Source: a virus (lineage: Duplodnaviria > Caudoviricetes). Taken from it: DNA of 64,000 nucleotides. The stretch is from the IMG/VR virus record IMGVR_UViG_3300011008_000008; one strand, written 5' to 3'. Below the pieces are notes generated by a model. It worked only from the letters and a program-made list of their open reading frames with translations, made no database searches and was not told the origin of the DNA. Below, piece by piece: positions 1,669-47,178 of the stretch (position 1 is its first letter; each line of letters begins with the position of its first letter). The position numbers and the translations under genes were made by a program.

Positions 1669-1974
1669 CTATTCTTCGATAGTAAAACTTTCCACGCACC
1701 ACTCGAAAACTTCCGACAAATAATCCTCGATCTCTTTATTGCTCATGTAGCCATCAATAATGATTCTTTCCGGCAAATCGGCGACTTCCTCTCCGTCTGT
1801 GTCCCACTTGATATTGGTCACTTTGATATAATTCGTCGGCTCTATTTTGACAATTTCCATGACGGGATAAACTATATTCCCATCCAGGATAATATTATGT
1901 CCATTTGTGCTAAAGCTTATCTTGCTGCATTCCAGCGTGTTTCCATTGGTAAAGTGTACGGTCATCTTGTTCAT
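1669..1974 (-). CDS. hypothetical protein
   Basis: ORF with RBS in operon. Confidence 0.75.
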   Translation of the reverse strand: MNKMTVHFTNGNTLECSKISFSTNGHNIILDGNIVYPVMEIVKIEPTNYIKVTNIKWDTDGEEVADLPERIIIDGYMSNKEIEDYLSEVFEWCVESFTIEE

Positions 1975-2004
1975 GCTCTTTTATCTCCCTTCTATGCATC
2001 ATCA

Positions 2005-2301
2005 TTATTTATCTGTGATTCCATCGCAGTAAAGCCCGCCTGATTTTTTCGCACCCTGCATCAGTTCCAGGAATAAATGCATCAGACTTGCAAAATTTTC
2101 ATCCTCGACGTAATACCCTACGCCGAACCAGTCACCCTGTAGATCCTCGGCGTTGATTACCAAATCTCCATACTGTATATCCCCATCGGCAACGCCCTCA
2201 CTCAGCCATGACTCAAAAACTTCTTCATCGTTGACCTGTCGTGCAATGTACTCCATAGCCTTGACCATCTTAATGCGCTCAGCCCTGTTCATCATCTTCA
2301 T
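2005..2301 (-). CDS. hypothetical acidic protein
   Basis: ORF with GGAGG RBS. Confidence 0.75.
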   Translation of the reverse strand: MKMMNRAERIKMVKAMEYIARQVNDEEVFESWLSEGVADGDIQYGDLVINAEDLQGDWFGVGYYVEDENFASLMHLFLELMQGAKKSGGLYCDGITDK

Positions 2302-2307
2302 AACCTC

Positions 2308-2469
2308 CTATGCTCTCTCGCAATAGACCTTTGTGGTTGTGTCCTTGATATAGCATCCATCAGAAAACCATTCGCAGTTATCATCCATCCATTCTTCACG
2401 CGCTTCTTCCGTATAAAACGCCTTGATCACGTCGCCACTCAACCAGTCCGACACCAAATATAATCCCAT
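2308..2469 (-). CDS. hypothetical protein, 53 aa (not in ORF track)
   Basis: MGLYLVSDWLSGDVIKAFYTEEAREEWM...; fills the gap between neighbouring genes. Confidence 0.65.
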   Translation of the reverse strand: MGLYLVSDWLSGDVIKAFYTEEAREEWMDDNCEWFSDGCYIKDTTTKVYCERA

Positions 2470-2486: not shown

Positions 2487-2663
2487 CTATCTGCTCTTTG
2501 CTTCACCAGACACTTTAACGTCGTGTCCGTCGATCTCATTGATATCATAATAGCCCTCGTCCAGGCGCTCCCATGCGATGCGCTCCGCTTCCTCGGCAGT
2601 CTCCGCCTCAATCTCGTCGGTCTCGATCAAGGTCTCATAAATTGTAACCTTCCACTTCTTCAT
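2487..2663 (-). CDS. DpnD/PcfM-like small protein
   Basis: KWKVTIYETLIETDEIEAETAEEAERIA pattern recalled for this family. Confidence 0.55.
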   Translation of the reverse strand: MKKWKVTIYETLIETDEIEAETAEEAERIAWERLDEGYYDINEIDGHDVKVSGEAKSR

Positions 2664-2690
2664 CGTTATTCCCTCCATTCATTCATTATT

Positions 2691-2927
2691 TTACATCCGT
2701 TCAATATTGTTCTTCAGCACAAAATTATGGATATGCGCCGTACAGCTTGCCAAATCTCCGTATTTAGCAATGATTTTCCTGTGCTTCATCGGATAACCGT
2801 ATTCACTTTGAGTATAGTACTCAGCATAGAGTCGAAACGGATTTGTGTTGGTCTTATCATCGTAATAGATTGTTGCAACCATGCCTTTGAGACTAATACT
2901 TCCAATCTTTTTCATAGGATACACCAC
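2691..2927 (-). CDS. hypothetical protein
   Basis: ORF in operon. Confidence 0.65.
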   Translation of the reverse strand: MVYPMKKIGSISLKGMVATIYYDDKTNTNPFRLYAEYYTQSEYGYPMKHRKIIAKYGDLASCTAHIHNFVLKNNIERM

Positions 2928-3041
2928 CTTTAATCATTCTGATTTATCCGCATTTTCGACCCTTCTGCGTTATGCCCTGACTCTCTGTATACTGTCGGGA
3001 CTCTCTCACGATAACGCTACTTTGGATCAAAATCCAAATTG

Positions 3042-3392
3042 TCAACCGGCGATCAGCTCACACTGGCTGGCCTTGAAGAAAAACGCAGTCTTTAAAAACA
3101 TCTTCATCTTGACGTTCTCGCCGTCCTGAGCTTCTTCTTCGGTCTGTTCTTCCTGCTTCTTCTTGCCCTTCCCAGGCTTCCAAATAGTAATTGCGGCGAC
3201 GTTCTTTTCTCCGCGCTTCACCTGATAGCCCAGCTTCTTCCAAACGGCGTAGGTGTGAATGGCTTCCGGCTCCATGACTTCGATCTCGCTGCCGTCCGGC
3301 ATTTCCATTACCATCTTGCGCCCCGTCGTTCCGATTACGCCATCCTCCATCAGCTTCACAGAAGCGTTGAAAATGATCATCTCGTTCGTCAT
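3042..3392 (-). CDS. ArdC-like N-terminal ssDNA-binding domain protein
   Basis: motif HTYAVWKKLGYQVKRGEK...ITIWK...FFKASQ; AGGAGG RBS. Confidence 0.65.
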   Translation of the reverse strand: MTNEMIIFNASVKLMEDGVIGTTGRKMVMEMPDGSEIEVMEPEAIHTYAVWKKLGYQVKRGEKNVAAITIWKPGKGKKKQEEQTEEEAQDGENVKMKMFLKTAFFFKASQCELIAG

Positions 3393-4882: not shown

Positions 4883-5629
4883 CTATGCTAATTTTAAATT
4901 AGTATCTGTTATGACTTTTGATGTGTCTATGCCGCAATTCTCGCACATGGCCACAGCGATTTGCAGGGCTTTGGGCCACTCTCCAGGCTTGATATAGTCC
5001 AGGATATTTCCAACACCTTGCGCCCTCGTATGACGCGATTTGGCGTTAATGTGACCGTGATAAAGCAGGTTCTTATAATAGACTTTCCAGGCTTGCGCAA
5101 AATCATTATCTCGGCATCCGGCGAATGTGCGCACCAGTCTAACAACGCTCTGCCGATAGTCCAGCGTCAAGGCATCCAGTGCCAACGCCTTATTGGTCTG
5201 CACCAGCGCGGCATTCCGTTCTTGTTCGTTTTTCAAAATCTCTAAAATCTGAATGATCGTTTCCGGCTGTCGCATCAGCTCGGTGATCTTCTCCGGGGTT
5301 ATGTAGGCTCCGTGCTTTCGGATTGATGGGATAACATCATGTGTTATCCAGCGTTTGAATGCTTTGGCTGCTGGCAGTTTGGATGATAACACCAGGCTAT
5401 ATAAACCGGACTCATTGATAATTGCTAAATTCTGTGCTCCTCCAAGGGTGTCGCATTTTGCTACTCCCCTGTCTTCCTCGTCTACACGCTTTGCCAACGC
5501 ATCGCGGCTGTTACTATATCCCAGAATATCCGTCACATCTTTTCCAACAAACCAGGGTTCACCATCAATTGCCAAGGTTCTGATTGTTCCAAATTCATCG
5601 TTTTTGAACATCGTGATTTTCTGTTCCAT
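4883..5629 (-). CDS. BRO-N domain protein (antirepressor-like)
   Basis: FGTIRTLAIDGEPWFVGKDV...INESGLYSLVLSSKLPAAKAFKRWITHDVIPSIRKHGAY. Confidence 0.9.
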   Translation of the reverse strand: MEQKITMFKNDEFGTIRTLAIDGEPWFVGKDVTDILGYSNSRDALAKRVDEEDRGVAKCDTLGGAQNLAIINESGLYSLVLSSKLPAAKAFKRWITHDVIPSIRKHGAYITPEKITELMRQPETIIQILEILKNEQERNAALVQTNKALALDALTLDYRQSVVRLVRTFAGCRDNDFAQAWKVYYKNLLYHGHINAKSRHTRAQGVGNILDYIKPGEWPKALQIAVAMCENCGIDTSKVITDTNLKLA

Positions 5630-5703
5630 CGTTCTGCCTCCGTTCAGATAATCCTCGTTTTAAAAAACCTCCGCAAAATGCGAAATCTGCGGAGGCCAAT
5701 TTG

Positions 5704-5757
5704 AATGTACGGTTTTGCTTTTTCAATGTTCGGTTTTCCGCTTGAATGTTCGGTTTT
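5704..5757. repeat. three direct repeats AATGTWCGGTTTT at ~21-bp period
   Basis: copies at 5704, 5725, 5745. Confidence 0.7.
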
Positions 5758-5762
5758 CCAAA

Positions 5763-5939
5763 TCACAGGCAGCAAAACTCATCCATGTCTTCATCGGATA
5801 TTGAATCGTAAATCTCGCTCAGTTCATCCCATAACTTCTGTGTTGTTTCCTCAAATTTGTTCGGACCGTCCATCAGCACGTTGTAATAATTGGTTTCCAG
5901 GTCGTGCAGTTTCTTCACATCGATATCTGTGATCTTCAT
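5763..5939 (-). CDS. small acidic hypothetical protein
   Basis: GGAGG RBS before ATG 5939. Confidence 0.65.
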   Translation of the reverse strand: MKITDIDVKKLHDLETNYYNVLMDGPNKFEETTQKLWDELSEIYDSISDEDMDEFCCL

Positions 5940-6028
5940 TATGTAATCCTCCATTGTTTTTGAATATCTCGTTTTTATGCTTATGAATGACTTGCCCGCG
6001 TATGAGGCCCACGGGCGGGCATCAATTC

Positions 6029-15207: not shown

Positions 15208-17979
15208 ATGCTATTGGAACTAAAATCATGTCATAAATTGATATACAAGATACATAGCAAACAACTAAAGAAAGCAAAGTGGAATCTAACTTTGGATCTG
15301 AATACTGCGATGCGCGAAAACTCGGAATGTGTCGTTGCCCTTAACAACAGTCAAGCATTGCGGTTCATCGACGAAATCAACGGCGTCGAAAACATCACGA
15401 GCAAAGTTAATCACTTGTATAATCGAATCAAGGCAGAAAAGAAGAAGCAGCGGAGCAAGGAAACCAAAGTCACGATACGACAACTCTATCAGACTTTGTA
15501 TGACCTCCAGTTTCAAAAAGACTATGTTTGCATTATCATGGACAGCAACGCCGACTATGACCGGGCGAACAAAGGATTTACAATCAACGGAGTAAAGTAC
15601 AGGAGATTGCTTGGTACAAACGGCGGAATTAAGAATTCGACGATTGTCTATGTCAGCGAAGCTGTATATGAGCCATTGAAGAAAAGGATGGACAACGGCA
15701 GAGATATGTCTAAGCAGCTTGTGCCCGCCAAGCTCGAAGCGTATCAAGCATTAATTTGTTCAGGGTCAACTCCCCTACCTCCGCCGCGAGGATTCATTGT
15801 GGTTAAAGACTGCATTACGCATTTCAAAGATAATGTGATTATGATAAATGATGAAGCTGATGGCGAACCTGTTCTAACCTACGAGAACAAGTATGAAATA
15901 GAGCATAATGATTCAGACGGCTATGGTCTAATGTCTCCTGCGTATTCAAAGATTGTCAATGGGTTTCTGACCGGCGATGATCAGCATACCATCTCTGGTA
16001 TGAACACCAGGTATGCATGGACTAAGGGTATGGTTTACACGTTTGATTTTGTAGAGTTTGCGGAGAAGATAGCTGGCACATATCTGATCGAGGATGTTTG
16101 GGGTTGCATCCGAGACGTGCGAGACGCCGATGTTATCCTTACAGAATCAATGCTTAAACTCTGGGATAGCTATGATAGCTGGGAGGATTATTATCGCAAC
16201 TGCGAAGAAAACCATTATGAGTTTTCAACACCGAAGATTACTCCGGAGAAATTGGAAAACGTGCGAGACACAAACTACCAGTTCTTGCAGAGCTATGAGT
16301 TTTCTGACGAGGAAATCAAAGAGCTGTGTGAGCCTACGTTCTCAGAGATTAATGACGCTCTTGGACTGGATTATAAAAAGAGCTTGACGTTTATGACCGG
16401 GTATGGCTTAACAGATGAAAGCGCAAGTCTTGAAAAATACAGCGCTCCTATTCAGGCGTTGATGATTGAACCAGGATTAATCAATGATTCATTCATTCGC
16501 CGGAAGATTTGGAGCATGATTGAGCGTCGAATAGAGATGGCCAAGCGCGGCGCGATTCGCGTGAACGGCAACTATGCAATGATATCTGGAGATCCATATG
16601 CTTTATGCCAAAGTATGTTTGGTTTGGAAATTACAGGATTGCTTAAAGCTGGCGAAGTTTATCACAAGTATTGGATAGACAAAGGGGCAGATGAAATAGT
16701 ATGTTTTAGAGCGCCAATGACTTGCCACAACAATATTCGTCGGATGATTTTAAACAAGTCTGTTGAAGTGCTGCATTGGTATCAATATATAAAAACGGCT
16801 CTAATCTATAATGCGTTTGATACAGCGTGTGAAGCAATGAACGGTTCTGACAAGGACGGGGATACGAATATGTGTACGGATAATCCAATTTTGATTCGTA
16901 GGACATTAAACTTGCCCACAATTGTCTGTGTGCAGCGCAAAGCTGAAAAAAAGATTGCATCAGAGGATGACATCATACAGGCTAACAAACTTGCATTTAA
17001 TGATGATATAGGAGTGATAACCAATCATGTAACAAGTATGATTGAGCGTCAGTCTGGTTTTGATATTGGGAGTAAAGAATATGAAACTTTGTCTTATAGA
17101 ATAATGTGCGGTCAGCTATATCAGCAGAATGCTATAGATCGCGCAAAGGGCATTATTGCAAAGCCAATGCCGACATACTGGTACAGCTATAGAGACTGCT
17201 TGCCGAAACCAGAAGATAAACCAGAAGAGCATAAAGCGAAGGAACTTAATATTCGTATTGTAGCTTCTGAAAAACCATACTTCATGAAGTATGTATATCC
17301 ATCATTGAAGTCGAAATATAATTCCTTTATGCAGAATAATAAGTATAAAGCAATCCGTCTATTCTCTGATAAAGGAATTAGGAACCTGGATGATCTCGAA
17401 CAGTATCCAGATAAGACAGATGAAATGCGTGAATTTCTCGAACACTTCCATAGCCATATGGTTGTTGGAGAAAATGATTGTGTGATCAATAGAATTTGTA
17501 AGCTTGCTGAAAACGAGTTCTCAAGTTTTTCAAAACTAAAATCAAGTGATCTATTGTTTGATTATAGCTCTTTGAAATGTGGCGTTGAATATTCTGCGAG
17601 TTTATATAACACAATCCATAGTATATATCATGAATACAAAAGAAGGGTAGAAAAGAAGAAAAATCATCTGAGCAACTTGAAGTCTGAAAAGAATATCGAT
17701 TATGATGATAAGGCACTATTTGTTGAATGGTTTAAAAGGCAATGCGCCGAGGTTTGTACTAACGAATACGAGCTTTGTGATATATTACTTGACATCTGCT
17801 ATCAAACAGAGGGAGATAAATCATTTGTCTGGGAGGTATGCGGTGATACAATAGTAAACAATCTATTATCTAAAAACGAATGGATGTTTAGCTACCCGGT
17901 AGAAACCAATGAGGATTCTGATTTTGTATTCTGCGGTAGAAGTATGTCTTTACATAGAAAGAGAGTCGATCATGATTAG
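15208..17979 (+). CDS. yonO: YonO-like single-subunit DNA-dependent RNA polymerase
   Basis: two-barrel polymerase motifs SDGYG, R..WTKG, FRAPM and catalytic GSDKDGD; size and position upstream of HU/terminase as in SPbeta. Confidence 0.85.
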   Translation: MLLELKSCHKLIYKIHSKQLKKAKWNLTLDLNTAMRENSECVVALNNSQALRFIDEINGVENITSKVNHLYNRIKAEKKKQRSKETKVTIRQLYQTLYDLQFQKDYVCIIMDSNADYDRANKGFTINGVKYRRLLGTNGGIKNSTIVYVSEAVYEPLKKRMDNGRDMSKQLVPAKLEAYQALICSGSTPLPPPRGFIVVKDCITHFKDNVIMINDEADGEPVLTYENKYEIEHNDSDGYGLMSPAYSKIVNGFLTGDDQHTISGMNTRYAWTKGMVYTFDFVEFAEKIAGTYLIEDVWGCIRDVRDADVILTESMLKLWDSYDSWEDYYRNCEENHYEFSTPKITPEKLENVRDTNYQFLQSYEFSDEEIKELCEPTFSEINDALGLDYKKSLTFMTGYGLTDESASLEKYSAPIQALMIEPGLINDSFIRRKIWSMIERRIEMAKRGAIRVNGNYAMISGDPYALCQSMFGLEITGLLKAGEVYHKYWIDKGADEIVCFRAPMTCHNNIRRMILNKSVEVLHWYQYIKTALIYNAFDTACEAMNGSDKDGDTNMCTDNPILIRRTLNLPTIVCVQRKAEKKIASEDDIIQANKLAFNDDIGVITNHVTSMIERQSGFDIGSKEYETLSYRIMCGQLYQQNAIDRAKGIIAKPMPTYWYSYRDCLPKPEDKPEEHKAKELNIRIVASEKPYFMKYVYPSLKSKYNSFMQNNKYKAIRLFSDKGIRNLDDLEQYPDKTDEMREFLEHFHSHMVVGENDCVINRICKLAENEFSSFSKLKSSDLLFDYSSLKCGVEYSASLYNTIHSIYHEYKRRVEKKKNHLSNLKSEKNIDYDDKALFVEWFKRQCAEVCTNEYELCDILLDICYQTEGDKSFVWEVCGDTIVNNLLSKNEWMFSYPVETNEDSDFVFCGRSMSLHRKRVDHD

Positions 17980-19173: not shown

Positions 19174-19250
19174 TGCGGGGTGACGCAGTTGGTTAGCGTT
19201 CCAGCCTCATAAACTGGGTGTCAGGAGTTCGAGTCTCCTCCCCGCAACCA
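19174..19250 (+). tRNA. tRNA-Met(CAT) (or Ile2)
   Basis: cloverleaf, anticodon loop CTCATAA, TTCGA T-loop, encoded CCA. Confidence 0.85.
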
Positions 19251-19316
19251 GATCGTACATAGCATACCTACGGGCGCTATGTCTTTTATCTATGACATTG
19301 CTGTCATAGAATTTTT

Positions 19317-19393
19317 GGTGTCGTAGTTCAATTGGCAAGAATACTGGCCTGTCACGCCAGAGGTTGAGGGTTCGATGCCCTCCGACATCGCCA
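19317..19393 (+). tRNA. tRNA-Asp(GTC)
   Basis: cloverleaf, CTGTCAC loop, G73, CCA. Confidence 0.92.
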
Positions 19394-19426
19394 CGGATTG
19401 GAGTATCCCGGAAAAACTCTTTATAT

Positions 19427-19511
19427 GGGTAAGTCGTATAGTGGCAATTACAGAGGACTGTAAATCCTCCCCTTTCGAGGTTCGTTGGTTCGAGTCCAAC
19501 CTTGCCCACCA
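19427..19511 (+). tRNA. tRNA-Tyr(GTA)
   Basis: cloverleaf, CTGTAAA loop, long variable arm, ACCA. Confidence 0.92.
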
Positions 19512-19524
19512 TAAACCTGATTAT

Positions 19525-19602
19525 GGACGCATAGCTAAATTGGTAAAGCACTTGACTGTTAATCAAGAGATTTTTCTTTGGGTTCGAGTCCCAATGCGTC
19601 CT
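19525..19602 (+). tRNA. tRNA-Asn(GTT), atypical
   Basis: GGACGCA/TGCGTCC acceptor, CTGTTAA loop; 10-nt variable loop, no CCA. Confidence 0.75.
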
Positions 19603-35990: not shown

Positions 35991-37049
35991 TTGGGAAAAA
36001 CTAATCTAAACGCTGGTAGGTCAACCGTTTATAATTCAATTACCACACCGGAAAAGTTGAGCGAAGTGAACGAAGATAATATTCAATTAGAAAATGATTT
36101 TCTTGAATATCTTGCTTCCACCGACAAATCCAAAGAGACAATTAAACAATATCGTTCCAACCTCCACATTTTCTGGTGCTGGAATTTGGAGAACAACAAG
36201 AATAAATTCTTTGTTGATCTAACGAAGCGTGAGCTTACAAAGTTTCAAAATCACGCTTTGAATGGTTGGGGCTGGTCGCCACGAAGAATTAGAACAGTAA
36301 AAGCCACTTTATCATCTTTAAGTAATTATATTGAAAACATACTTGATGATGAATATGAAGGATATAAATCAATTATTGGTAAGATTGAATCGCCAATTGA
36401 CAGAGCGGTACGCGAGAAAACAGTTTTTCAAGAAAGCGATTTAATGCCTCTACTTGATTACCTCGTTGAAAATAAACAATATATGAAAGCTTGTGCTTTA
36501 TCTCTTGCCATGAACGGCGGTAGGCGTAAGGCGGAATTGCCAAGATTTAAGGTTGGTTATTTCAGGCCAGAGTTTACTATATGCAATGGTGCATTATATA
36601 AAACCCCGGAAAAAGTGCAGACGAAAGGCAGAGGGTTTGAGGGTAAACCCTTGGAGCTGTATACTATTGTCTCGCCATTTCAACCATATTTGGATTTATG
36701 GATGGAAGAAAGACAGAGGCTTGGGATTAATAGTCAATGGTTATTCCCGAAAAAGAAAGATGGGAAATGGGTTGATGAACCGATCCAGACAACAACTCTT
36801 GATTCATGGGCGCGTTCATTTAGTATATTCCTTGGGAAGCCTTTCTATTGGCATAGTTTAAGACATTACTTTACGACAAAGCTTGTGTCGTATGATATAC
36901 CATCCGCAGTAATTCAAGATATCGTTGGTTGGGAATCCGCAGATATGGTTAATCGTTATGACGATACTGAAAAGGATGAACGCTTTGAAAAATACTTTGG
37001 TGCAGATGGAATTAATAAGGTTAAAGCTACAAGACTTGAAGAACTATAA
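35991..37049 (+). CDS. tyrosine recombinase (SPbeta YomM-like)
   Basis: SAM-like N-terminus; GRRKAEL, KG, HSLRH, VGW, RY catalytic residues. Confidence 0.88.
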   Translation: MGKTNLNAGRSTVYNSITTPEKLSEVNEDNIQLENDFLEYLASTDKSKETIKQYRSNLHIFWCWNLENNKNKFFVDLTKRELTKFQNHALNGWGWSPRRIRTVKATLSSLSNYIENILDDEYEGYKSIIGKIESPIDRAVREKTVFQESDLMPLLDYLVENKQYMKACALSLAMNGGRRKAELPRFKVGYFRPEFTICNGALYKTPEKVQTKGRGFEGKPLELYTIVSPFQPYLDLWMEERQRLGINSQWLFPKKKDGKWVDEPIQTTTLDSWARSFSIFLGKPFYWHSLRHYFTTKLVSYDIPSAVIQDIVGWESADMVNRYDDTEKDERFEKYFGADGINKVKATRLEEL

Positions 37050-37108: not shown

Positions 37109-39289
37109 ATGGCTGACTTTGAGGCAAGAGTACTTGCCAAATTAGATTTATCAGAGTTAAATGGTGAGCTGTCAAGGCTATCAAGCTCAAATAATAGGAT
37201 GACAATCCAGCCGCGATTAGATACAAGCGCAATAACAAGGCAGATTGATAATATTGAACAAAGGCTTCGCGCACTTGGAAATATTAGAATTAATCTTGGC
37301 GGAAACACCCGTCAGAATTACAATGGTGCTGATTCATTGCGTGCAATGCAGGAAATGCAGAGCATTATCCGTCAGATCAATTCGACGGAGCTTAAACTAT
37401 CCGGGTTGGATATGGGCAAGAATGCATCACAGATTACTGAATTAAATAACCAACTAAATGTTTTGCAACAGCGCCTTACCAGCGTAATGACATCTCAATC
37501 AAATAATTTAACGGCTGGCCAGTTTGATCAGTTGAATCAATCAGCGCAAGAAGCACAAAATAGGTTGGCTGAAGTTGATGCAAAACTTGCTGATACAAGA
37601 AATCAAATGGCACAGAAAATACAGATGGATATTGATACCGGCAAGATCGATACATCTATTACTTCTGTGACAGAAAAGTATAGCAAATTAAGTAATACTG
37701 GACACTCCAGCTTATCTGCAATTAAAGCAGATATTGAAGAACTCGGAAATCTTCAAGCGGATCTGAACAATGCCACATCGAACGAGCAACTAATCAGCAC
37801 ATACGAGCGTTTCCAGCAAACGCTATCTAAGGTCAAGAATAGCCTATCTACTGTAAGTTCAGAATCAAAAATGATGGCGACATCTTTACAAATTGGCCAG
37901 CTTGATAATAAAATGTCGCAATGGCTATCCAACAATTCAAAGGCTACTAAAGAATATGGTGCTGCCATTAACGCATTGAGATCACGTTTGTCTGAACTTG
38001 CTTCTTCTGGCACTGCGACAACAGCAGACCTACAAGCTCTCGACAACGAGTTTAAACAGATTGTAGTTGATGCAACCGCTGCAGGATTGACAGGCAAATC
38101 CTTTGGTGACATCATTAAGAGCACGGCTCAACAGATGGTTGGGTTTGTTTCCATAGCATCTGTAATGTCAACAGCAATTCGACTATTTAAGGATATGTCG
38201 AAGGAAGTTCTATCTGTTGATACAGCAATGACCGGCTTATATCGTGTTACAGATTTATCGTCCGACCAATATAAGCAGATGTATAGCGAGATGGTAACAT
38301 CTGCAAAAAGCTATGGTTCTACTCTAACCGATATTATCAATGGTACAACGACATGGGTTAAGCTTGGTTTTTCACCGGAAGAAGCGCAAGGCTTATCTGA
38401 TATTACTGCAATATACCAGCATGTTACTGATCTTGATACAGAAACAGCAGTCAAGAATCTTGTAACTGCCTATAAAGGCTATGAGGAACAGCTATTAGCA
38501 TTGACCAATGGCGATTCTGTAAAAGCCACTGAATACATAGCAGATATCTTTGATAAACTTGGTAACGAGTTTGCAGTCAGTGCAGCGGATGTCGGCGCTG
38601 GCCTGGTAAATTCCGCATCTGCTTTAAACGTTGCTGGTAACTCTTTGCAGCAGTCGGCGGCTATGATCACCGGTATTACCGAAGTTACTCAAAATGCTTC
38701 AAAGGCCGGTAATGCTGTACGTACTCTTTCTATGAGATTAAGAGGCGCTACTGCGGAAGATCTGCAAGAGCTTGGCGAGGATACAGATGGTTTGATTACA
38801 TCTGTATCAAAATTGCAAGGAGTAATCAAAGGTCTGACCGGGGTAGATATTACAGACGTTAATGGCCAGATACGTTCTACATTTGATATTATGGACGATC
38901 TTGCGGGAGTGTTCAATGATTTAAAAACAAACGATCAATCATTCCTGCTTGAAACAATCGCCGGTAAAGCGCGTGGTTCTGATATCGCAGCTCTATTGAA
39001 GAATTGGGATCAGGTTAAAGCTGCATATGAAGCAGCGAATAACGCTTGGGGTACAGCTTCAAACGAGCAAGCGGTTTATATGGAATCTCTACAAGGTAAG
39101 ATAAATCAGTTTAAAGCATCCTGGCAATCTTTAGCGAATACAGTACTTTCTTCTGATTTCTTGAAAGGCGCTGTCGATACTGCGACAACATTACTTTCCT
39201 TACTTGATTCTATTGTTGGAAAACTTGGGACAATTCCAACTATAGTAGGCGCTATAACCGCCGCAACATCCCTTAAAAACGGCGCAGGT
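37109..39289 (+). CDS. tape measure protein, exon 1 (727 aa)
   Basis: TP901-type TMP core (VDTAMTGLYRV...DKLGNEFAVS...AGNAVRTLSMRL); ends ..GCA GGT at 5' splice site. Confidence 0.9.
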
Positions 39290-39747
39290 TGAACAGATCA
39301 ATCAGTTCACACATCCAATTATACTACGGAGAATATGCCTGCGAAGCTCTCTAATGGCAACATGAACGAGACTGTCTTATAATTCGCTTGACAGTCAAGA
39401 GGGGCTAAGACATCGAGTGTACTTTTGCCACATGCAAAGGTCTACTCGATAATGGGTTAAACTGGTAGGGGTGATTACCTACCACATAAGACTGGGACGA
39501 ACCGTGGATGAACCTACATACAATAATCCACGGAACTATCAGCAGCCATATCCCGATGCGAATACGGGAAGGTTCAGAGACTATAAACTCACACGGTTGT
39601 TAATCGTGAATGTATAGGCCAAACTGTACTCGGCAGTAGGAATAGCCGAGGTAAAAGATCGACCTGGTAAGCCAGCCAGGGTATAGGAATTGGCGGGTGT
39701 CCCCTACCCCGTTGTGCTTGAGACGAAAAGAGGAAATATGGTATTAC

Positions 39748-39996
39748 CTACCATTTATAGCCGCAATTTTTGCACTCGAATTGTGCCCTTGCTGTAGGAT
39801 TGGTAATACCAAAAGCAAAAGCATTTAGTGAGCGTCGAGTATTAGACACTCTGTTTATATTTGTCGAATGACAAGTTGGGCATTCAATAGTATCTGGCAA
39901 GGCTGTTGCTAACTTACCGCCGCAAATCATACATTTATTTCCGTTATAATCATTCAGTCTAATACCGCATTTTGTACAATATTTTTTCTGCCCCAT
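39748..39996 (-). CDS. double zinc-ribbon protein (intron cargo)
   Basis: CTKC, CMIC, CPTC, CKNC; GAGGTG RBS; own promoter. Confidence 0.85.
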   Translation of the reverse strand: MGQKKYCTKCGIRLNDYNGNKCMICGGKLATALPDTIECPTCHSTNINRVSNTRRSLNAFAFGITNPTARAQFECKNCGYKW

Positions 39997-40015
39997 TTAT
40001 TATCACCTCTTCATT

Positions 40016-40044
40016 ATTATACCATTACTTTACCTGCATGTCAA
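40016..40044 (-). promoter_or_regulatory. sigma-A promoter of intron cargo gene
   Basis: TTGACA(40039-40044)-17-TATAAT(40016-40021) with extended TG. Confidence 0.85.
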
Positions 40045-40080
40045 TTAATTTGTGTATAAGCAGCACATTTAGACAGTTTG

Positions 40081-43000
40081 CTATTCTCTTCATTTGCAGA
40101 TAAAGACGGAAATAATAAAGTTACTTTCTTAGGTAAAACTCTTTCCGATATTAAGGGCGGAAAACTATTTACTAATGATAAAAAAGCATTGTCAGAATAT
40201 ATTAAGGCGCTACAATCCGGGCAATCCCAACAGGAAGCATTTGATTCTACAATGTCTGGTGCGAGTGAAAAGGCACAGATATTTGCAAAGAGTATTGATA
40301 CAAGTAGTGAGTCATTACAAAAATATTCAACTGAAGTCCAGAATATATCTGCGGGATCAAAACTATTAAAAGTAGGGCTTGCTGCTTTAAATTCTATTGC
40401 AGTTTCACTGCTTGCGTCTTTTGCTCAATGGGCTATTTCAAAAGTTATAGATAATGTAGTTAATCGTGTTGAAAACGCTTATAACAAAGCCAAGAAAATA
40501 GCAGATGAAACAGCGACAACAGCTACGAAGTCAACTGAAGATAGTAAAACTCTCGACGAGCTAATAAATAAATATAAAGAGCTTAGAAGTAGTGAAAACT
40601 ATGGAGCGTCTGAAAGATCGCAAGTTGCTACAATACAGCAACAGATTGTTTCTTTAGTTGGTGAGGAAGCGGCTGGTCTTGATCTTGTTAATGGGAATCT
40701 TGAAACACAACTCGGTATTTTAAAGCAAATCTCCGCTGAAAAACTACAAAATGCAATTAGGGATCAAAAGATAGCTACGGATGCCGCAATTGAAGCCGCA
40801 AATGCAACTCCATCTTTGAATAAAACATTGATGGCGCATAACGCATATAAGGGCAATAGGAATGACGAAGCAGCGGCGGCGCTAACAAAGCATGGTATTT
40901 ATAACGTTGGTGGGCCATTTAGCTTTGTCAATGATTTTATTAACGGTTTTCGGATTGACGATGGTACTGACAATGGCGCAACGTTAATGACGCGCTTGAA
41001 CTTTTTAAAACGAGTTCGCTCAGCATTAGAAAGTGAAATCACAGATTTTCAAAGCAATGATGTCTGGGTTGGAGTATCTAAACAGATTAGTGCTTACGAT
41101 GCAGAATTGTCAAAAGTTACTACCGAAGTAAATAAGCAGATGCAATTGCTTACTATGGAAGCAATGCAAAGTAATGGCGATCTGGAAAGTATTGCAAAAG
41201 ATACTGCAGATGGATTTGAGCAATATGTAGATATAATAGTAAGTCAAGTATCAAAAAGTGGATGGTTTGATGATTACATAGACCAAGGATTTATTGATCT
41301 TGATTCAATTCGAGATTATGTAATTACTCAACTATCTTCTATAGAAGACTTCTCTGCTGGTAGAGATAAGTGGAATAAAGAAAATCGAAAAAATGACATT
41401 CTTGATTCAATATTCGGCGCTGGTAGTTTAGGCAGAGCTAAATCCCAGACTGTTGGTGAAATCTCTAAGTTTATAGATTCATTACCAGATGAAGATTTAG
41501 AGATAGCTTATACAGTTGCATTAGATAAACAATCTGAAATAGAAACTGTCGATCAATTTAAAGAGCTTATAGATAAAGCTAAAGAAGATGCTCTAAATGC
41601 CGATTCAATTTCGTTTAATGAGTTTGTTTCAAGCGATACAATCAAAAATGATCTTGAACCAATACTAAAAGAGTATCAAGAAATTGCTGCCGCCAGGAAG
41701 AAATTACAATCTGGTGAAGCCACCGAATCAGATTTGATTTATGAGCATCCTTCTTGGGCTAAATATGCTGGCAATCTTGAAGCTGGATTAATCGATCATG
41801 CTGAAGAATTAAAGAAAAAGGCTGAAACAGAAATTGGTAAAATAGTTATCACCCCTGAAATAGATGAAGATGGCACAGACAATATTGCTGCTTTTGAAAC
41901 ATGGAGAGATTCTTTCTTAAAACAGTTTGAGGAAGAAGGAGTAATAACACTTCCAATAGACATTGATGCTGAAACAACTGGCATGAACAATGTAATGAGT
42001 GCTATTAAATCCTCAGTTTCAGAAACAGGTCTTGCAGCAGACCAAGTTGAAAAGCTAAAAGAAAGATACAAAGGTCTAACTGATGCTGGTGACAGCCTGA
42101 ATAATCTTTTTGACAGAACTACAAGCGGTATCCACCTAAACACAGATGCACTTCGCGAACTTGAAGATGCCTACCAGAAACAATTAACAGATAAGGTTTC
42201 TGTCGATCTTGAAAAGCAACGTAGGCTTTATCAAGAACTGACAGAGAGCATAAATAATGCTGGCGATGCTGATACAAGTGGTCTTGAAGCTCAACGTGCC
42301 GCTGCCGCAAATGCAATACGTGAACTTGAAAGCCTGTCCGCCCAGCTTGCGGGTGTTACATCAAAGTACAACAAGTGGAAGCAAGCAAGAAGCGGTGGCG
42401 AAGAGGGCGATGCCTATGTTGACACCACATCACAGCTAAAGGATCTACAAGAGCAGCGCAAAAAAGGTCTTGTAGGAACAAATGAATTCCGTTCCGCCGT
42501 AGAGTTTATGGCTGGCGGTGTTGAAGATGTAGATTTGTCAACTGCATCAGTTGATCAGTTGGTAGCTGCTTATGATAAGGCATATCCTAAGATGCAGCGG
42601 TATTTCACCGAGAGCAATAAGGGCACTCAGAACTTCCTGAAAGATTTGGAAAAGGCGGGCAAAGCTTCCAAAGATGCCGAAGGCGTATGGTCGTTTGACT
42701 TTGGCGAGGATGGTATGCAAGGCGTCGTTGATGATCTTGGAATTAGTGCCGAGGCAATATATCAGATACTTGGTCGGTTAAAAGATTATGGCGCTGAAGT
42801 TCATCTTGAATCTTTATTTCCAGATATTGATTTACAAGCGGATAATATAGCGGACGCCATTACAGAAGTCGATGAAAAGATTCAACAGGTAAAACAGGAT
42901 ATTGCAGACGGTAAAGTTTCTGAAGAGGCTGGAAATGAACAGATAGAAAAGTATAATGAAGCAAAAGAAGCTTTACAGAATATGGACGTTGGTGCAGAAG

Positions 43001-46000
43001 TAAATACTCTTTCATTAGATGAAGCTTTGGCCAAAATCCAAGAACTTGAAGGAGCTATTACTACACTAACCTCAGCTGGTATTGAAATTCCTGTTAGTAT
43101 TGCTGGGCAATATGATGAGCTTCAGACATTTGTTCAAGAATATAGCGAGAAGAAAAATATTGACGTTGAAGTCAAGGTTAATGTTAGCGGAGATGCGCAA
43201 GAAAAGATTGAAGCTATCAGTAAATCCATCGACGATCTTGGCAAGAAAAAAACTACACTGGAGATTAATGCAACAGATAAGGTATCTACTGTTGTCGATG
43301 GAGCCAAGGAAAAGCTTGACAATACCGCTGAAGGCCTATACAATGCTACTGTTTCTGCTCAAACTGATAGTACGGTAGCGGCAGTTGCGAAAGCGCTCGA
43401 TGAAGCTGCCGAGGATAGAACAGCTACTATTACTACAAAATATGTCGAAGCGCCCGTAACTGGCGATGAACCAGATTATGTTGACAATACTCACATAAAT
43501 GAGGATGGCGTAACAGTCGGTTATAGTGGTGTTCTACCCTATAAAACCCGTGAGCCAGACAAAGGTAAAGACGCTGAAATAGTGCCTATTGAGCAAACGT
43601 GGCAAAATTCGCCCGCCCCGAAAAACCTTGATGTTGAAGTCGAGGCAAGCGAGGATTCCGGCGAAAAAATTGTTGAGCAAGTTCAGGACGATATAGACGA
43701 ACAGCCACCTATTGAAGAAAAGATTATAAACAATAGTGATGGAATGATCATGTTCCCTGGTGACGAGGGGTATGATATTGATGTTGATGTTAATGCATCA
43801 GATCCATCAAAACCTATTGAACAGGTTAAAGAAGCTGCCTCATCTAATCCGATTGAAATCGAGCTTACTAAAAACGACACTAATGATGCCGTTGAAGCTG
43901 CGAATAGTCTTATTGGCAAAGCTGATGAACTTGGTGTGGGTGACATGGAGGGTGGCCCAGAGTTAATCAGCAATCTAACGACTGCATATAACGAGCTTTA
44001 CCAGGCAGAAGTAAAAGCTGCGGAAGTAGCTAAGACTGGCGATAGTTCTGGTGCAACAGAAGCCGCAAGCGAATTACAGTCGGCAGCGCAATCGTATATG
44101 GATGCGTATAATTCCTTATCCGATGTATTATCGTCTGGAATAGAGCCATTAGAAGTTGATGCAGACACAGAGACGGTGTTAAGCAAAATCCAGGCTTTGG
44201 CAGATATAGACCCAACATTAGTTGTTGGTGTAAATGATGTAGCAGTCAAAGCATACCAATCTGAGAATATTGATAAGGATGCTAAGGTTAATTACGCTCT
44301 TGGTAAAACTCCTGACTATAATCCGCAAGATATAGACAGAAATCTTACTTATCACATTAAAACGGTTGGTTCGGTTTCTGGAGGTGCTGGTGCAACTGGT
44401 ACAGCTCACGCTCGTGGCACAGCGTTTAAGTCAGGAAGATGGGGAGTCCGTGGTGAAGGTGACGCATTAGGTGGTGAGACCGGCGAGGAGCTGGTGGTAA
44501 GAGATGGTAGGTTCTTTACTATAGGCACTAATGGCGCAGAATTCTTTCACTATAAAGATGGCGATATTATTTTTAATGCCTCACAGACTAAAGAACTCCT
44601 CGAAAGAGGAAAGATCATTTCTGGCAAGTCTCGTGGAAGGGTATTTGGAAGTGGCTCCGCTTATGCTGAAGGTTTGGCATTTGATGAACCTTCAATATAT
44701 GGTTCAACTAAAGATTATTCCGATAACTCTGGCAGTAGTAGCGGTAAGAAAACCTCCAAGAAGTCAAGTAGTAAAAAGTCCAGTAAATCCAGTAGCAAGA
44801 AAAAGAGTAGCAAGAGCAGCAAAGACTCCAACGACATGATGGATTGGATCGAGGTTGCCATTGACCGTGTTGAACTTGCAATCAAGAAACTTGCAAGAGT
44901 AGCCGACAGCACGTTCAAAGGACTTGCAACCCGACTATCTGCTACCAACGATGAAATAGGCGAAATCTCGAAAAAGATTTCCATTGAGCAACAGGGCTAT
45001 GATCGCTATATGCAGCAAGCGAACAGCGTTAAGCTGACCGATGCTACAAAGCAAAAGATCATGGACGGAACCATTGATATTACTCAATACTCCGATAGTC
45101 AAAAGAAGCGTATTGACGAATTCAAGAAATGGTACGACAAAGCCCAGGATTGTGCCGATGCTGTTGAAGAATTAAATGAAAATCTTGCAACGCTTTATAA
45201 CAACAAATTCGGTGCGATTTCAAAGGATGCTGACAATCAGATTAAGCTGCTGGAGCATCTGACCAACTCATTCAACGATGGCTTAGACTTGATAGAGGAG
45301 CGCGGCTATAAAGGCGGTGCTACCCTGTATGCGTCAATGCAGAATGTTGAGCGTCAGAATATCGCAGTATTCCAGAAAGAGCTTGCCGATCTAACACAAG
45401 TCATGAACGAAGCCGTCAATTCCGGCAAGATTCAGGAAGGTTCCGAAGCATGGTATGACATGCAGCAACAGATCAATTCTGTCAAAGAATCAATCCAAGA
45501 ATCCGAAACAGCCATTGTCAAATACGGCAATGCCATTCGCCAGGTCAAATGGGATTTATTTGATTACACGCAGGATAGAATTGCTACACTTACATCCGAA
45601 GCGCAATTCATGTTTGACCTAATGGAAAGATCTAAGCTGTATGACGATAACGGCAACTTCACCAGCACAGGTAAAGTGCAGGTAGGTATGACCGCGCAGA
45701 ACTATAACGTCTATATGGCACAGGCCGACATGTATGGCGATGAGGTCAAAAACATCACTGCCGAGCTTGCCAACGATCCTAATAACACCAAGCTCATTGA
45801 CCGGCGTGAAGAATTGTTGAAGCTCCAGCAAGAATCAATTTCATCCGCCGAGGATGAAAAACGCGCAATGGCTGATTTGGTTGAGGAAGGTATCAACGCG
45901 CAACTTGACGCCCTGAAGGATTTGATTGATGCCTATGAGGAGTCCCTTAGTAACGCGAAAGATTTATACGACTATCAGAAGAAGGTTAAGAATCAGACAA

Positions 46001-47178
46001 AGGAAATTGCTTCGATACAGAAACAATTATCTGCCTATCAAGGTGATACGTCCGAAGAAAACCAGGCGCGTTTACAGAAGTTGAAAGTTGATCTTTCTGA
46101 TGCAGTCGAAGATTTGCAGGACACCCAATACGACCAATATATTAAGGATCAGAAGAAACTATTGGACGGTCTGTATAGCGATTATGAGGAATTGCTGAAC
46201 AATCGTTTGGATGATATCGACGCGCTAATGCTTGAAATGATTGATTACGCAAACGCGAACGCAGTTGAGATTGGTCAAACCATTTACGATGAAGCCGCCC
46301 AAGTTGGATATACCATTACAGACAATATGAACGAAATCTGGAATAGCTACAATACAGATAATGTATTAGAGAAATATGGTGAATCTATTCTTGGACAGTT
46401 TGGGTCTGTGACCAACGTTATCAACGGAATAGTCAATCAGGTTGCTGCAATAAACAACGCTGCGAATGCAATTGCCGCGCAGGTTCAAGCGAAGGTAGCC
46501 GCGAGTGCTGCAGCTTCAACTGGTGGTAGCGCCGCCGCGATAGTATCATCACCTTCGGTAGCTGCCGCTGCATCAGGTGGACAAAAGGTTACAGTCGCAA
46601 ACGGACAATGGTGGCTGTACAAGAATGGCCCAAAGAGTGGACAGACATCTGATATTGTTCATACCGGTGAGAAGTATGAATATCTTGGTGAGGATAAAGC
46701 CTCTAACGGCGAGAAGTATACCAAGATCAGCTACAAGGGTAAAGTGCGCTGGTTCAATTCTAAAGGTAAGGGCAAGCTGGGCTATTCCCAGGGTGGCTTT
46801 ATCGCAGATCTCCAGAAGATTGCTTATCAGAACGGCGATGATATGTTGACCTTCAATACGCTAAAGCGTGGCGAAGCAGTATTGACGCCGGAGCAATCTA
46901 TACAGTTCAAGAATCTGACAGATCATTTGCCACAGTTGCAAGGCATTATAGATATGTCTGGCCATATGCAACAAATCAGATCGGGTAGCAATGCCTCCAG
47001 CGGAGAAATCAGAATCGATGTCGGAGGAATTACTACCACGGTTGAGAATGTGCAGGACTACAATGACTTCCTGCGGCAAATGAGAGACGATAAGAATTTC
47101 GAGCGCATGATCGATGCGATGACACTTGATCGCTTGGTTGGTAAATCCAGTTTGGCGAAAAAGAAGTATTTCAGTTAG
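40081..47178 (+). CDS. tape measure protein, exon 2 (2365 aa; spliced total 3092 aa)
   Basis: long helical/coiled-coil ORF, GETGEELVV motif, SH3b-like segment near C-terminus; no RBS of its own. Confidence 0.88.
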   Translation, partial: LFSSFADKDGNNKVTFLGKTLSDIKGGKLFTNDKKALSEYIKALQSGQSQQEAFDSTMSGASEKAQIFAKSIDTSSESLQKYSTEVQNISAGSKLLKVGLAALNSIAVSLLASFAQWAISKVIDNVVNRVENAYNKAKKIADETATTATKSTEDSKTLDELINKYKELRSSENYGASERSQVATIQQQIVSLVGEEAAGLDLVNGNLETQLGILKQISAEKLQNAIRDQKIATDAAIEAANATPSLNKTLMAHNAYKGNRNDEAAAALTKHGIYNVGGPFSFVNDFINGFRIDDGTDNGATLMTRLNFLKRVRSALESEITDFQSNDVWVGVSKQISAYDAELSKVTTEVNKQMQLLTMEAMQSNGDLESIAKDTADGFEQYVDIIVSQVSKSGWFDDYIDQGFIDLDSIRDYVITQLSSIEDFSAGRDKWNKENRKNDILDSIFGAGSLGRAKSQTVGEISKFIDSLPDEDLEIAYTVALDKQSEIETVDQFKELIDKAKEDALNADSISFNEFVSSDTIKNDLEPILKEYQEIAAARKKLQSGEATESDLIYEHPSWAKYAGNLEAGLIDHAEELKKKAETEIGKIVITPEIDEDGTDNIAAFETWRDSFLKQFEEEGVITLPIDIDAETTGMNNVMSAIKSSVSETGLAADQVEKLKERYKGLTDAGDSLNNLFDRTTSGIHLNTDALRELEDAYQKQLTDKVSVDLEKQRRLYQELTESINNAGDADTSGLEAQRAAAANAIRELESLSAQLAGVTSKYNKWKQARSGGEEGDAYVDTTSQLKDLQEQRKKGLVGTNEFRSAVEFMAGGVEDVDLSTASVDQLVAAYDKAYPKMQRYFTESNKGTQNFLKDLEKAGKASKDAEGVWSFDFGEDGMQGVVDDLGISAEAIYQILGRLKDYGAEVHLESLFPDIDLQADNIADAITEVDEKIQQVKQDIADGKVSEEAGNEQIEKYNEAKEALQNMDVGAEVNTLSLDEALAKIQELEGAITTLTSAGIEIPVSIAGQYDELQTFVQEYSEKKNIDVEVKVNVSGDAQEKIEAISKSIDDLGKKKTTLEINATDKVSTVVDGAKEKLDNTAEGLYNATVSAQTDSTVAAVAKALDEAAEDRTATITTKYVEAPVTGDEPDYVDNTHINEDGVTVGYSGVLPYKTREPDKGKDAEIVPIEQTWQNSPAPKNLDVEVEASEDSGEKIVEQVQDDIDEQPPIEEKIINNSDGMIMFPGDEGYDIDVDVNASDPSKPIEQVKEAASSNPIEIELTKNDTNDAVEAANSLIGKADELGVGDMEGGPELISNLTTAYNELYQAEVKAAEVAKTGDSSGATEAASELQSAAQSYMDAYNSLSDVLSSGIEPLEVDADTETVLSKIQALADIDPTLVVGVNDVAVKAYQSENIDKDAKVNYALGKTPDYNPQDIDRNLTYHIKTVGSVSGGAGATGTAHARGTAFKSGRWGVRGEGDALGGETGEELVVRDGRFFTIGTNGAEFFHYKDGDIIFNASQTKELLERGKIISGKSRGRVFGSGSAYAEGLAFDEPSIYGSTKDYSDNSGSSSGKKTSKKSSSKKSSKSSSKKKSSKSSKDSNDMMDWIEVAIDRVELAIKKLARVADSTFKGLATRLSATNDEIGEISKKISIEQQGYDRYMQQANSVKLTDATKQKIMDGTIDITQYSDSQKKRIDEFKKWYDKAQDCADAVEELNENLATLYNNKFGAISKDADNQIKLLEHLTNSFNDGLDLIEERGYKGGATLYASMQNVERQNIAVFQKELADLTQVMNEAVNSGKIQEGSEAWYDMQQQINSVKESIQESETAIVKYGNAIRQVKWDLFDYTQDRIATLTSEAQFMFDLMERSKLYDDNGNFTSTGKVQVGMTAQNYNVYMAQADMYGDEVKNITAELANDPNNTKLIDRREELLKLQQESISSAEDEKRAMADLVEEGINAQLDALKDLIDAYEESLSNAKDLYDYQKKVKNQTKEIASIQKQLSAYQGDTSEENQARLQKLKVDLSDAVEDLQDTQYDQYIKDQKKLLDGLYSDYEELLNNRLDDIDALMLEMIDYANANAVEIGQTIYDEAAQVGYTITDNMNEIWNSYNTDNVLEKYGESILGQFGSVTNVINGIVNQVAAINNAANAIAAQVQAKVAASAAASTGGSAAAIVSSPSVAAAASGGQKVTVANGQWWLYKNGPKSGQTSDIVHTGEKYEYLGEDKASNGEKYTKISYKGKVRWFNSKGKGKLGYSQGGFIADLQKIAYQNGDDMLTFNTLKRGEAVLTPEQSIQFKNLTDHLPQLQGIIDMSGHMQQIRSGSNASSGEIRIDVGGITTTVENVQDYNDFLRQMRDDKNFERMIDAMTLDRLVGKSSLAKKKYFS

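Follow-up and report, generated by a model that had tools for sequence, protein, structure and literature searches.

An antisense zinc-ribbon gene with its own predicted consensus promoter inside a putative group I intron of a phage tape-measure gene

Phage group I introns are usually regarded as bare ribozymes or as vehicles of homing nucleases. The homing-endonuclease introns of phages, such as T4 td with I-TevI and those of the SPO1 DNA polymerase, Streptococcus thermophilus lysin and Cluster J mycobacteriophage capsid genes, lie in essential genes and carry a peripheral ORF, which can also have expression signals of its own. In the nuclear rDNA of fungi and protists, group I introns hold antisense endonuclease genes encoding His-Cys box nucleases, and the IStrons of Clostridioides difficile consist of a 5' group I intron fused to IS200/IS605 genes at the 3' end. 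Morons are accessory genes, each with its own promoter and terminator, that are inserted between phage late genes. Group I introns in phage structural genes, including capsid and tail genes, have been documented (PMC3706429, PMC3952083), and the lipoprotein Ltp of phage TP-J34 targets the tape-measure protein (TMP) to exclude phages (Bebeacua et al. 2013, as summarized in PMC3952083).

We analyzed a small cargo gene predicted to lie antisense within a TMP intron, in a window of 64,000 nt (the whole stretch of DNA examined) from the IMG/VR virus record IMGVR_UViG_3300011008_000008. Like the homing-endonuclease introns of phages, the locus combines an intron in an essential gene with a peripheral ORF, but the ORF here is antisense, has 82 aa, lacks a nuclease motif and stands behind a perfect host-type promoter. 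As in IStrons, the ribozyme core comes first, the protein cargo lies at the 3' end and the whole element is expected to be spliced out; unlike in IStrons, there is no transposase, and the cargo is antisense with its own promoter. The protein gene lies opposite the ribozyme strand, as in the nuclear rDNA introns, whereas the cassette here has a bacterial-type promoter and a non-nuclease product. The likeness to morons is that of an autonomous expression unit in a late region, with a putative promoter of its own (12/12 consensus positions and an extended -10) and a cargo that is present, absent or swapped among related phages; TMP genes of the PMBT24 type are uninterrupted, and one homologous intron (L081) carries a lipoprotein. 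The cargo differs from morons in that it sits inside a gene, within an intron, and not between genes, in its antisense orientation and in its doubtful terminator. That L081 lipoprotein also recalls the TMP-targeting phage accessory proteins of the Ltp type, but the likeness is one of analogy only, as the cargo protein of the window is soluble, lacks a lipobox and does not resemble Ltp in sequence. In the literature, we found no description of a TMP intron with such a cargo, layout or motif.

The interrupted tape-measure gene and its intron

The first TMP exon (37109..39289, plus strand) encodes 727 aa, ends with the codon GGT and contains a PhageMin_Tail domain, which was detected in the exon-1 ORF (37109..39292) as Pfam PF10145 with an E-value of 1.8e-20. 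The second exon (40081..47178, plus strand) encodes 2365 aa followed by a stop codon; its frame is open from 40060, and neither a Shine-Dalgarno sequence nor an ATG was found at its start. The two exons join in frame in the predicted spliced product (...SLKNGAG|LFSSFADKDG...). In Enterocloster phage PMBT24 the TMP is continuous (1508 aa), and exon 1 aligns with its residues 66-443; more distant TMP homologues are also uninterrupted across the intron position. Directly upstream of the TMP gene and inside the structural block, the window encodes a tyrosine recombinase (Phage_integrase and SAM-like N domain) at 35991-37049 on the plus strand.

The putative group I intron between the exons (39290..40080, plus strand) is 791 nt long and ends with G40080. 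Four homologous introns were found at the identical TMP codon (...K-N/S-x-G|), namely L011, L081 and L082 from IMG/VR and L085, the one locus given by the metagenome scan. Their lengths are 1063, 982, 2726 and ~2450 nt, and an nhmmer search with the intron profile returned five members. The exon join falls in phase 0 in all five intron copies despite lengths ranging from 791 to 2726 nt.

The 5' strand of P1, GCAGGU (39284..39289, plus strand), pairs with GCCUGC (39337-39342), and U39289, the last base before the predicted 5' splice site, takes part in a U.G pair. In the relatives, P1 reads GUGGGU/GCUCAC, GUGGGU/GCCCAC and CCGGU/GCCGG, with the U.G pair kept in all, and the helix is thus maintained by compensating changes. 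The internal guide (39331..39342, plus strand) consists of GAAUAU, the exon 2 partner in P10, followed by the GCCUGC that pairs with exon 1. In the window, the start of exon 2, CUAUUC, pairs with the former as UAUUC/GAAUA; the corresponding P10 is AUAUUC/GAAUAU in three relatives and GCAGUC/GAGUGC in L085, where 5/6 positions are paired. All intron copies end in ...cagtttG or ...cagtattG, the junction in the window being cagtttG|CUAUUC.

The predicted ribozyme core (39453..39710, plus strand) comprises, with all helices on the plus strand, P3 (39453-56 with 39588-91), an extra hairpin between P3 and P4 (39463-86), P4 (39492-95 with 39539-42), P5 (39499-536), P6/P6a (39544-74), P7 (39580-85 with 39613-18), P8 (39592-608), P9 (39624-29 with 39681-86), P9a (39630-49), P9b (39663-80) and P9.1 (39692-710). 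The P, Q, R and S elements are recognizable as AAGACUGGGACGA, CUAUCAGCAGCC, GGUUCAGAGACUAUAAAC and GAAUGUAUAGGCC. RNAalifold analysis of four intron copies yielded 113 pairs, 32 of them compensated. In the curated structure, which is the RNAalifold result with a manually added P3 pseudoknot, 95% of cells were paired, compared with 34-40% when the partners were slid; pairs with double changes numbered 33, and 2-7 in the slid controls. The P3 pseudoknot occurs in the variants UGGG/CUCA, UAGG/CCUA and CAGG/CCUG, and P3 and P7 each contain two covarying positions. By these comparisons, the intervening sequence has the anatomy of a group I intron. In its 3' periphery, between P9.1 and the 3' splice site and 36 nt from the latter, lies the cargo cassette.

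The Rfam group I model (RF00028) gave no match on 38500-41000 (E ≤ 1) or on 39270-39770 (E ≤ 10), and Rfam found no intron in 18 related loci; a blastn search with the intron region against GenBank phages gave no match either. The core departs from the textbook form in the hairpin between P3 and P4 and in an A.G mismatch in the window's P7, and these deviations may account for the Rfam miss. Since the curated RNA model misses this intron family, the TMP genes of such phages will be annotated as two genes. One might take that annotation at face value, with the TMP encoded by two genes and an ordinary divergent small gene between them, given that Rfam finds nothing and that splicing is here predicted from sequence. 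We consider this very improbable, as covariation extends to P1, P10 and the terminal G, the exons join in frame in all homologues whatever the intron length (791 to 2726 nt), exon 2 lacks both an ATG and a ribosome-binding site at its start, the core structure has strong support, and the TMP of relatives is continuous. A second group I intron of the genome (L084; G000:C1:53389-53639, minus strand), which RF00028 matched with 60.7 bits, interrupts a lysin-like gene; it is compact (~250 nt) and free of cargo and promoter.

The cargo gene, its protein and its expression signals

The cargo gene (39748..39996, minus strand) encodes an 82-aa protein with two zinc-ribbon-like CxxC...CxxC units. The initial annotation had placed this gene antisense to the TMP gene within its group I intron, behind a consensus promoter and a GAGGTG ribosome-binding site, and had described four CxxC pairs and a short AFAFGI segment in its product. 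The ORF, its motifs, the promoter sequence and the ribosome-binding site were confirmed, and the placement inside a group I intron was supported. The CxxC pairs are at residues 7-10, 22-25, 39-42 and 75-78, and AFAFGI (residues 59-64) lies between the third and the fourth. Thirteen homologues share 55-69% identity with a nearly invariant C-terminal half, and the motif CPTC(H/G)S..I..VSQT(R/K)R....AFGI.NPTARAQFECKNCGYKW is common to all 13, almost unchanged. In comparisons of the module with six relatives, pN was 0.24-0.35 and pS 0.65-0.99, values of pS that place synonymous sites near saturation. Judged by this conservation, the ORF is a real gene, and its protein is under purifying selection.

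A scan of IMG/VR with the single cargo protein returned no relatives, so that an alignment-based search was needed. A profile search with the zinc-ribbon module then matched 1834 clusters at E ≤ 0.001 and 244 at E ≤ 1e-10. Among the best 150 of the 1834 matches, in proteins of 69-280 aa, the module is C-terminal, with one exception that has 3 residues beyond it. A variable linker and an N-terminal ribbon (YYCPxCG...CxxC) are present in many relatives, and the window's protein is a minimal form, with a single N-terminal ribbon and the C-terminal module.

Searches of Pfam, PHROGs, NCBIfam and PADLOC with the cargo protein gave only generic zinc-ribbon matches, all sub-threshold, the best Pfam score being that of DUF7129 (23.3 bits, cut-off 30). 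The curated family nearest to the C-terminal module is the IS1595 transposase zinc ribbon (25.1 bits in L011, threshold 25.4). Against the PADLOC models there was no match, the best E-values being 0.027 for the window's protein and 0.0093 for the 13 members. Pfam detected no nuclease or other enzyme domain in ten antisense cargo proteins, nine of them with the zinc-ribbon module; LAGLIDADG, GIY-YIG, HNH, His-Cys box and PD-(D/E)xK motifs were absent from the 82-aa protein and from the ten, and no transposase domain was found in the cargo proteins. An HNH identity was considered and rejected, as conservation does not extend to the His that follows CPTC (most relatives have Gly there) and the HNH spacing is absent. 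The window's protein has no hydrophobic N-terminus, signal peptide, lipobox or membrane segment. The AlphaFold2 model of the protein was poor (pLDDT 63), and Foldseek with this model returned nothing below an E-value of 0.2; a sequence-profile search of the PDB gave nothing below 0.005, ESM Atlas gave only unnamed zinc-ribbon clusters, and tblastn with the protein against GenBank phages gave no match.

The predicted sigma-70-type promoter (40016..40044, minus strand) is perfect, with TTGACA at 40044-40039, a 17-nt spacer that contains TG at 40024-40023 (TGgTATAAT), and TATAAT at 40021-40016; it was the sole 12/12 match in a promoter scan of 38500-41000. The -10 hexamer ends 19 nt before the ATG, from which a leader of ~12 nt is predicted. 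The ribosome-binding site GAGGTG (40004..40009, minus strand) is 7 nt before the ATG, and an identical GAGGTGA precedes the cargo ATG in L011. Exact TTGACA-N16-18-TATAAT sites number 8 in the window, where 0.08 would be expected by chance, and 18 in the 151.6-kb genome, all 18 on one strand. The large ORFs are on the promoter strand at 0-52 kb and 105-151 kb and solely on the opposite strand at 55-105 kb. The cargo promoter is the only one of the 18 that lies inside the opposite-strand block (52-105 kb), and its orientation is that of the other 17. This block of ~50 kb presumably holds the late genes, and the genes on the promoter strand are presumably early.

All the other-strand genes are driven by promoters of the class to which the cargo promoter belongs, so that expression of the cargo independently of late transcription, which the initial annotation had proposed, would be the natural reading. 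Its further suggestion of expression in a lysogen found no support in our analysis; direct terminal repeats are present in the record, a genome of 151.6 kb. A 923-aa ORF (15208-17979 of the window, plus strand), which heads the late block, matches Pfam RdRP PF05183, of the two-barrel family, with an E-value of 1.9e-11, and it is a candidate for a single-chain two-barrel RNA polymerase resembling YonO. In SPbeta, YonO, a single-chain enzyme of this kind, transcribes late genes (PMC5467207), which makes it plausible that the genes of this phage are divided between the host polymerase and a phage polymerase. Four tRNA genes are clustered at 19174-19602 of the window (plus strand).

Transcription of the cargo would proceed towards P9.1, then P9 and then P7 of the plus-strand RNA, in keeping with the first reading of the locus, in which the promoter points into the ribozyme core. 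Past the stop codon, the cargo strand runs through the complement of P9.1 and then that of P9b, and U residues follow only the latter. This terminator-like element (39653..39680, minus strand) consists of the P9b complement (CCUGG...CCAGG; 39680-39663) followed by UCGAUCUUUU, with a 5-bp stem, an interrupted U tract and -7.4 kcal/mol. It is conserved in all four intron homologues examined, and the equivalents in L011, L081 and L082 have the better tract UUGAUUUUUA. The earlier statement that no clear terminator follows the gene therefore stands insofar as the hairpin in the window is unconvincing, but a weak, conserved U-tract hairpin is present. In L011 a strong terminator (-14.6 kcal/mol) immediately follows the cargo, and in L009, a locus of a different intron family, a terminator with an 11-bp stem lies ~200 nt past the cargo and before the ribozyme core; no terminator was seen after the cargo in L076, of the same family as L009, or in L085.

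With only a weak terminator-like hairpin behind the window's gene, antisense read-through over P7-P3 is possible, and the antisense transcript might itself be functional, an early RNA across P9-P7 and exon 1 that delays or tunes TMP splicing or expression. Consistent with this, five homologous introns retain the promoter hexamers although the downstream gene varies. We regard such control, which the initial annotation had raised, as unlikely, as the terminators of L011 and L009 both precede the ribozyme core, the L081 intron carries a lipoprotein gene in this position, and the protein is under purifying selection. Moreover, perfect promoters are the norm for the other-strand genes of this phage, so that the cargo promoter needs no special explanation.

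The intron slot in related phages

The position that the cargo gene takes in the window is filled differently in the homologous introns. In L081, the slot (1836-2351, plus strand) encodes a 154-aa lipoprotein with the lipobox IISGC (MKKKTIAIFIFIFAIVIIISGC...) behind a 12/12 promoter with TG, whereas L082 has a 165-aa zinc-ribbon-module protein behind a 12/12 promoter and L011 a 164-aa protein with the same module behind TTGACT-17-TGgTAAGAT (9/12). L085, the phage with the closest TMP exon 1, encodes two transmembrane helices fused to a C-terminal zinc-ribbon module in this slot (2536-3165, plus strand; promoter 12/12 with TG), and its intron also holds several small membrane-protein ORFs. The cargo is thus swappable among homologous introns, from the lipoprotein of L081 to the transmembrane fusion of L085. 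The sequences that flank the promoter hexamers could not be aligned between homologous introns.

L009 and L076 have a different intron sequence family at the identical TMP codon, with canonical P and Q elements and the P1 helices GUCGGU/GCCGAC and UUCGGU/GCCGAA; the profile of this second family found two members. In both, a zinc-ribbon gene again lies immediately inside the 3' splice site, preceded by promoters of 11/12 (L009) and 12/12 (L076). Intron-like sequences that match neither of the intron profiles built also occupy this TMP codon (...KNLG|, ...KNVG|) in L010/L067 (P1 UAGGU/GCCUA) and L061/L065, and they resemble further intron families. Two other loci have long TMP intervening sequences that hold genes in sense orientation, a 630-aa calcineurin-like phosphoesterase (L016:4498-6387, minus strand) and a SocA/Panacea-domain protein (L017:5090-5743, minus strand).

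The module could be located in 70 loci. In 49 of these, the opposite strand has a frame of ≥400 aa (mostly >1000 aa) from which a zinc-ribbon gene diverges near the 5' edge, starting 3-82 nt before that edge or overlapping it by 25-181 nt. Opposite-strand TMP exon-1 tails were found in 29/70 loci, mostly 0.4-4 kb past the zinc-ribbon gene, and 21/70 loci are away from TMP genes. Promoter matches of at least 10/12 lie upstream in 14/37 loci, compared with 6.7% of background windows. Judged from these comparisons, the layout of cassette and intron is conserved in related phages and recurs in dozens of large gut phages. Tandem zinc-ribbon paralogues, two or three in number, occur in many loci, and decayed modules with stops or truncated N-termini stand beside intact paralogues in L013, L063 and L067-L071 (~5140-5980 in each). 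Within ~1-2 kb of zinc-ribbon genes in related phages, Rfam identified skipping-rope RNA in two loci and 6A RNA in one (L010:6024-6107, L046:5129-5207 and L057:4765-4815).

The family stands almost constantly beside the 3' splice site of the TMP gene, in two or more intron sequence families, and this could reflect a functional tie to the intron or the TMP and not neutral parking. One form of such a tie is a protein that serves the intron, as a DNA-binding homing partner for a nuclease encoded elsewhere or as an RNA chaperone or maturase. Besides its recurrence at the same TMP codon in unrelated intron sequences, the family offers some features in favor of this role, in that the L011 module falls just below the IS1595 transposase zinc-ribbon threshold and the decayed copies and tandem paralogues resemble selfish-gene turnover. 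We nevertheless judge it decidedly improbable. All members tested lack a nuclease motif, the module is also found away from TMP genes and in 1834 clusters overall, and antisense early expression would be the wrong time and strand for a maturase. The L081 intron, being the same intron without a zinc-ribbon protein, argues as well against the splicing cofactor that the initial annotation had listed among its hypotheses.

Possible roles of the cargo and meaning of its position

Our data are best explained by an early accessory gene, expressed by the host polymerase and parked in the intron, and the protein, not an antisense RNA, is probably the selected product. Host RNA polymerase would transcribe the cassette early, alongside the other genes with consensus promoters and independently of the late TMP transcript; we infer both the strength and the timing of the promoter from its sequence. 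The insertion would be harmless in the intron, since splicing would remove the cassette from the TMP mRNA, and the antisense orientation would keep early transcription out of exon 2 and the tail genes. The cargo would then be a moron-like accessory factor that binds a nucleic acid or protein partner via its two zinc ribbons and would not be a homing nuclease.

A role of the intron slot in superinfection exclusion or defence, as first hypothesized for the cargo protein, is plausible. In its specific form, the cargo would be a TMP-tied competition or exclusion factor, made early, that blocks the genome entry or development of competing phages, and its location inside the TMP gene would let the factor and the spared TMP allele be inherited together. 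This form would accord with the classical-lipobox lipoprotein behind a perfect promoter in the slot of a homologous intron (L081), with the module carried on two transmembrane helices and accompanied by small membrane proteins in the closest relative (L085), with the exclusion of phages by TP-J34 Ltp via their TMP, and with the failure of tblastn to match the cargo in phages with an uninterrupted TMP. It seems rather unlikely for the window's protein, however, which has no signal peptide or membrane segment and no similarity to Ltp or any PADLOC model, and the linkage to the TMP could be simple descent. There is likewise some limited chance that the slot inside the 3' splice site is a dedicated platform for early factors directed at TMP-dependent genome entry or at competing phages and absolutely linked to the spared allele; zinc-ribbon, lipoprotein and membrane-anchored forms would be variants of such factors. 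If the platform reading were true, the zinc-ribbon family, with its 1834 clusters, would be a new class of phage-against-phage competition proteins.

On the preferred reading of an early accessory gene parked in the intron, the intron of an essential late gene would safely accommodate a gene that has a perfect promoter of its own and belongs to the opposite strand and the opposite temporal class. This suggests a route by which phages may fit early accessory genes into long late operons while leaving these operons intact. It also draws attention to a family of phage zinc-ribbon proteins that is both very large and unnamed, and for which the position of the gene offers a starting point.
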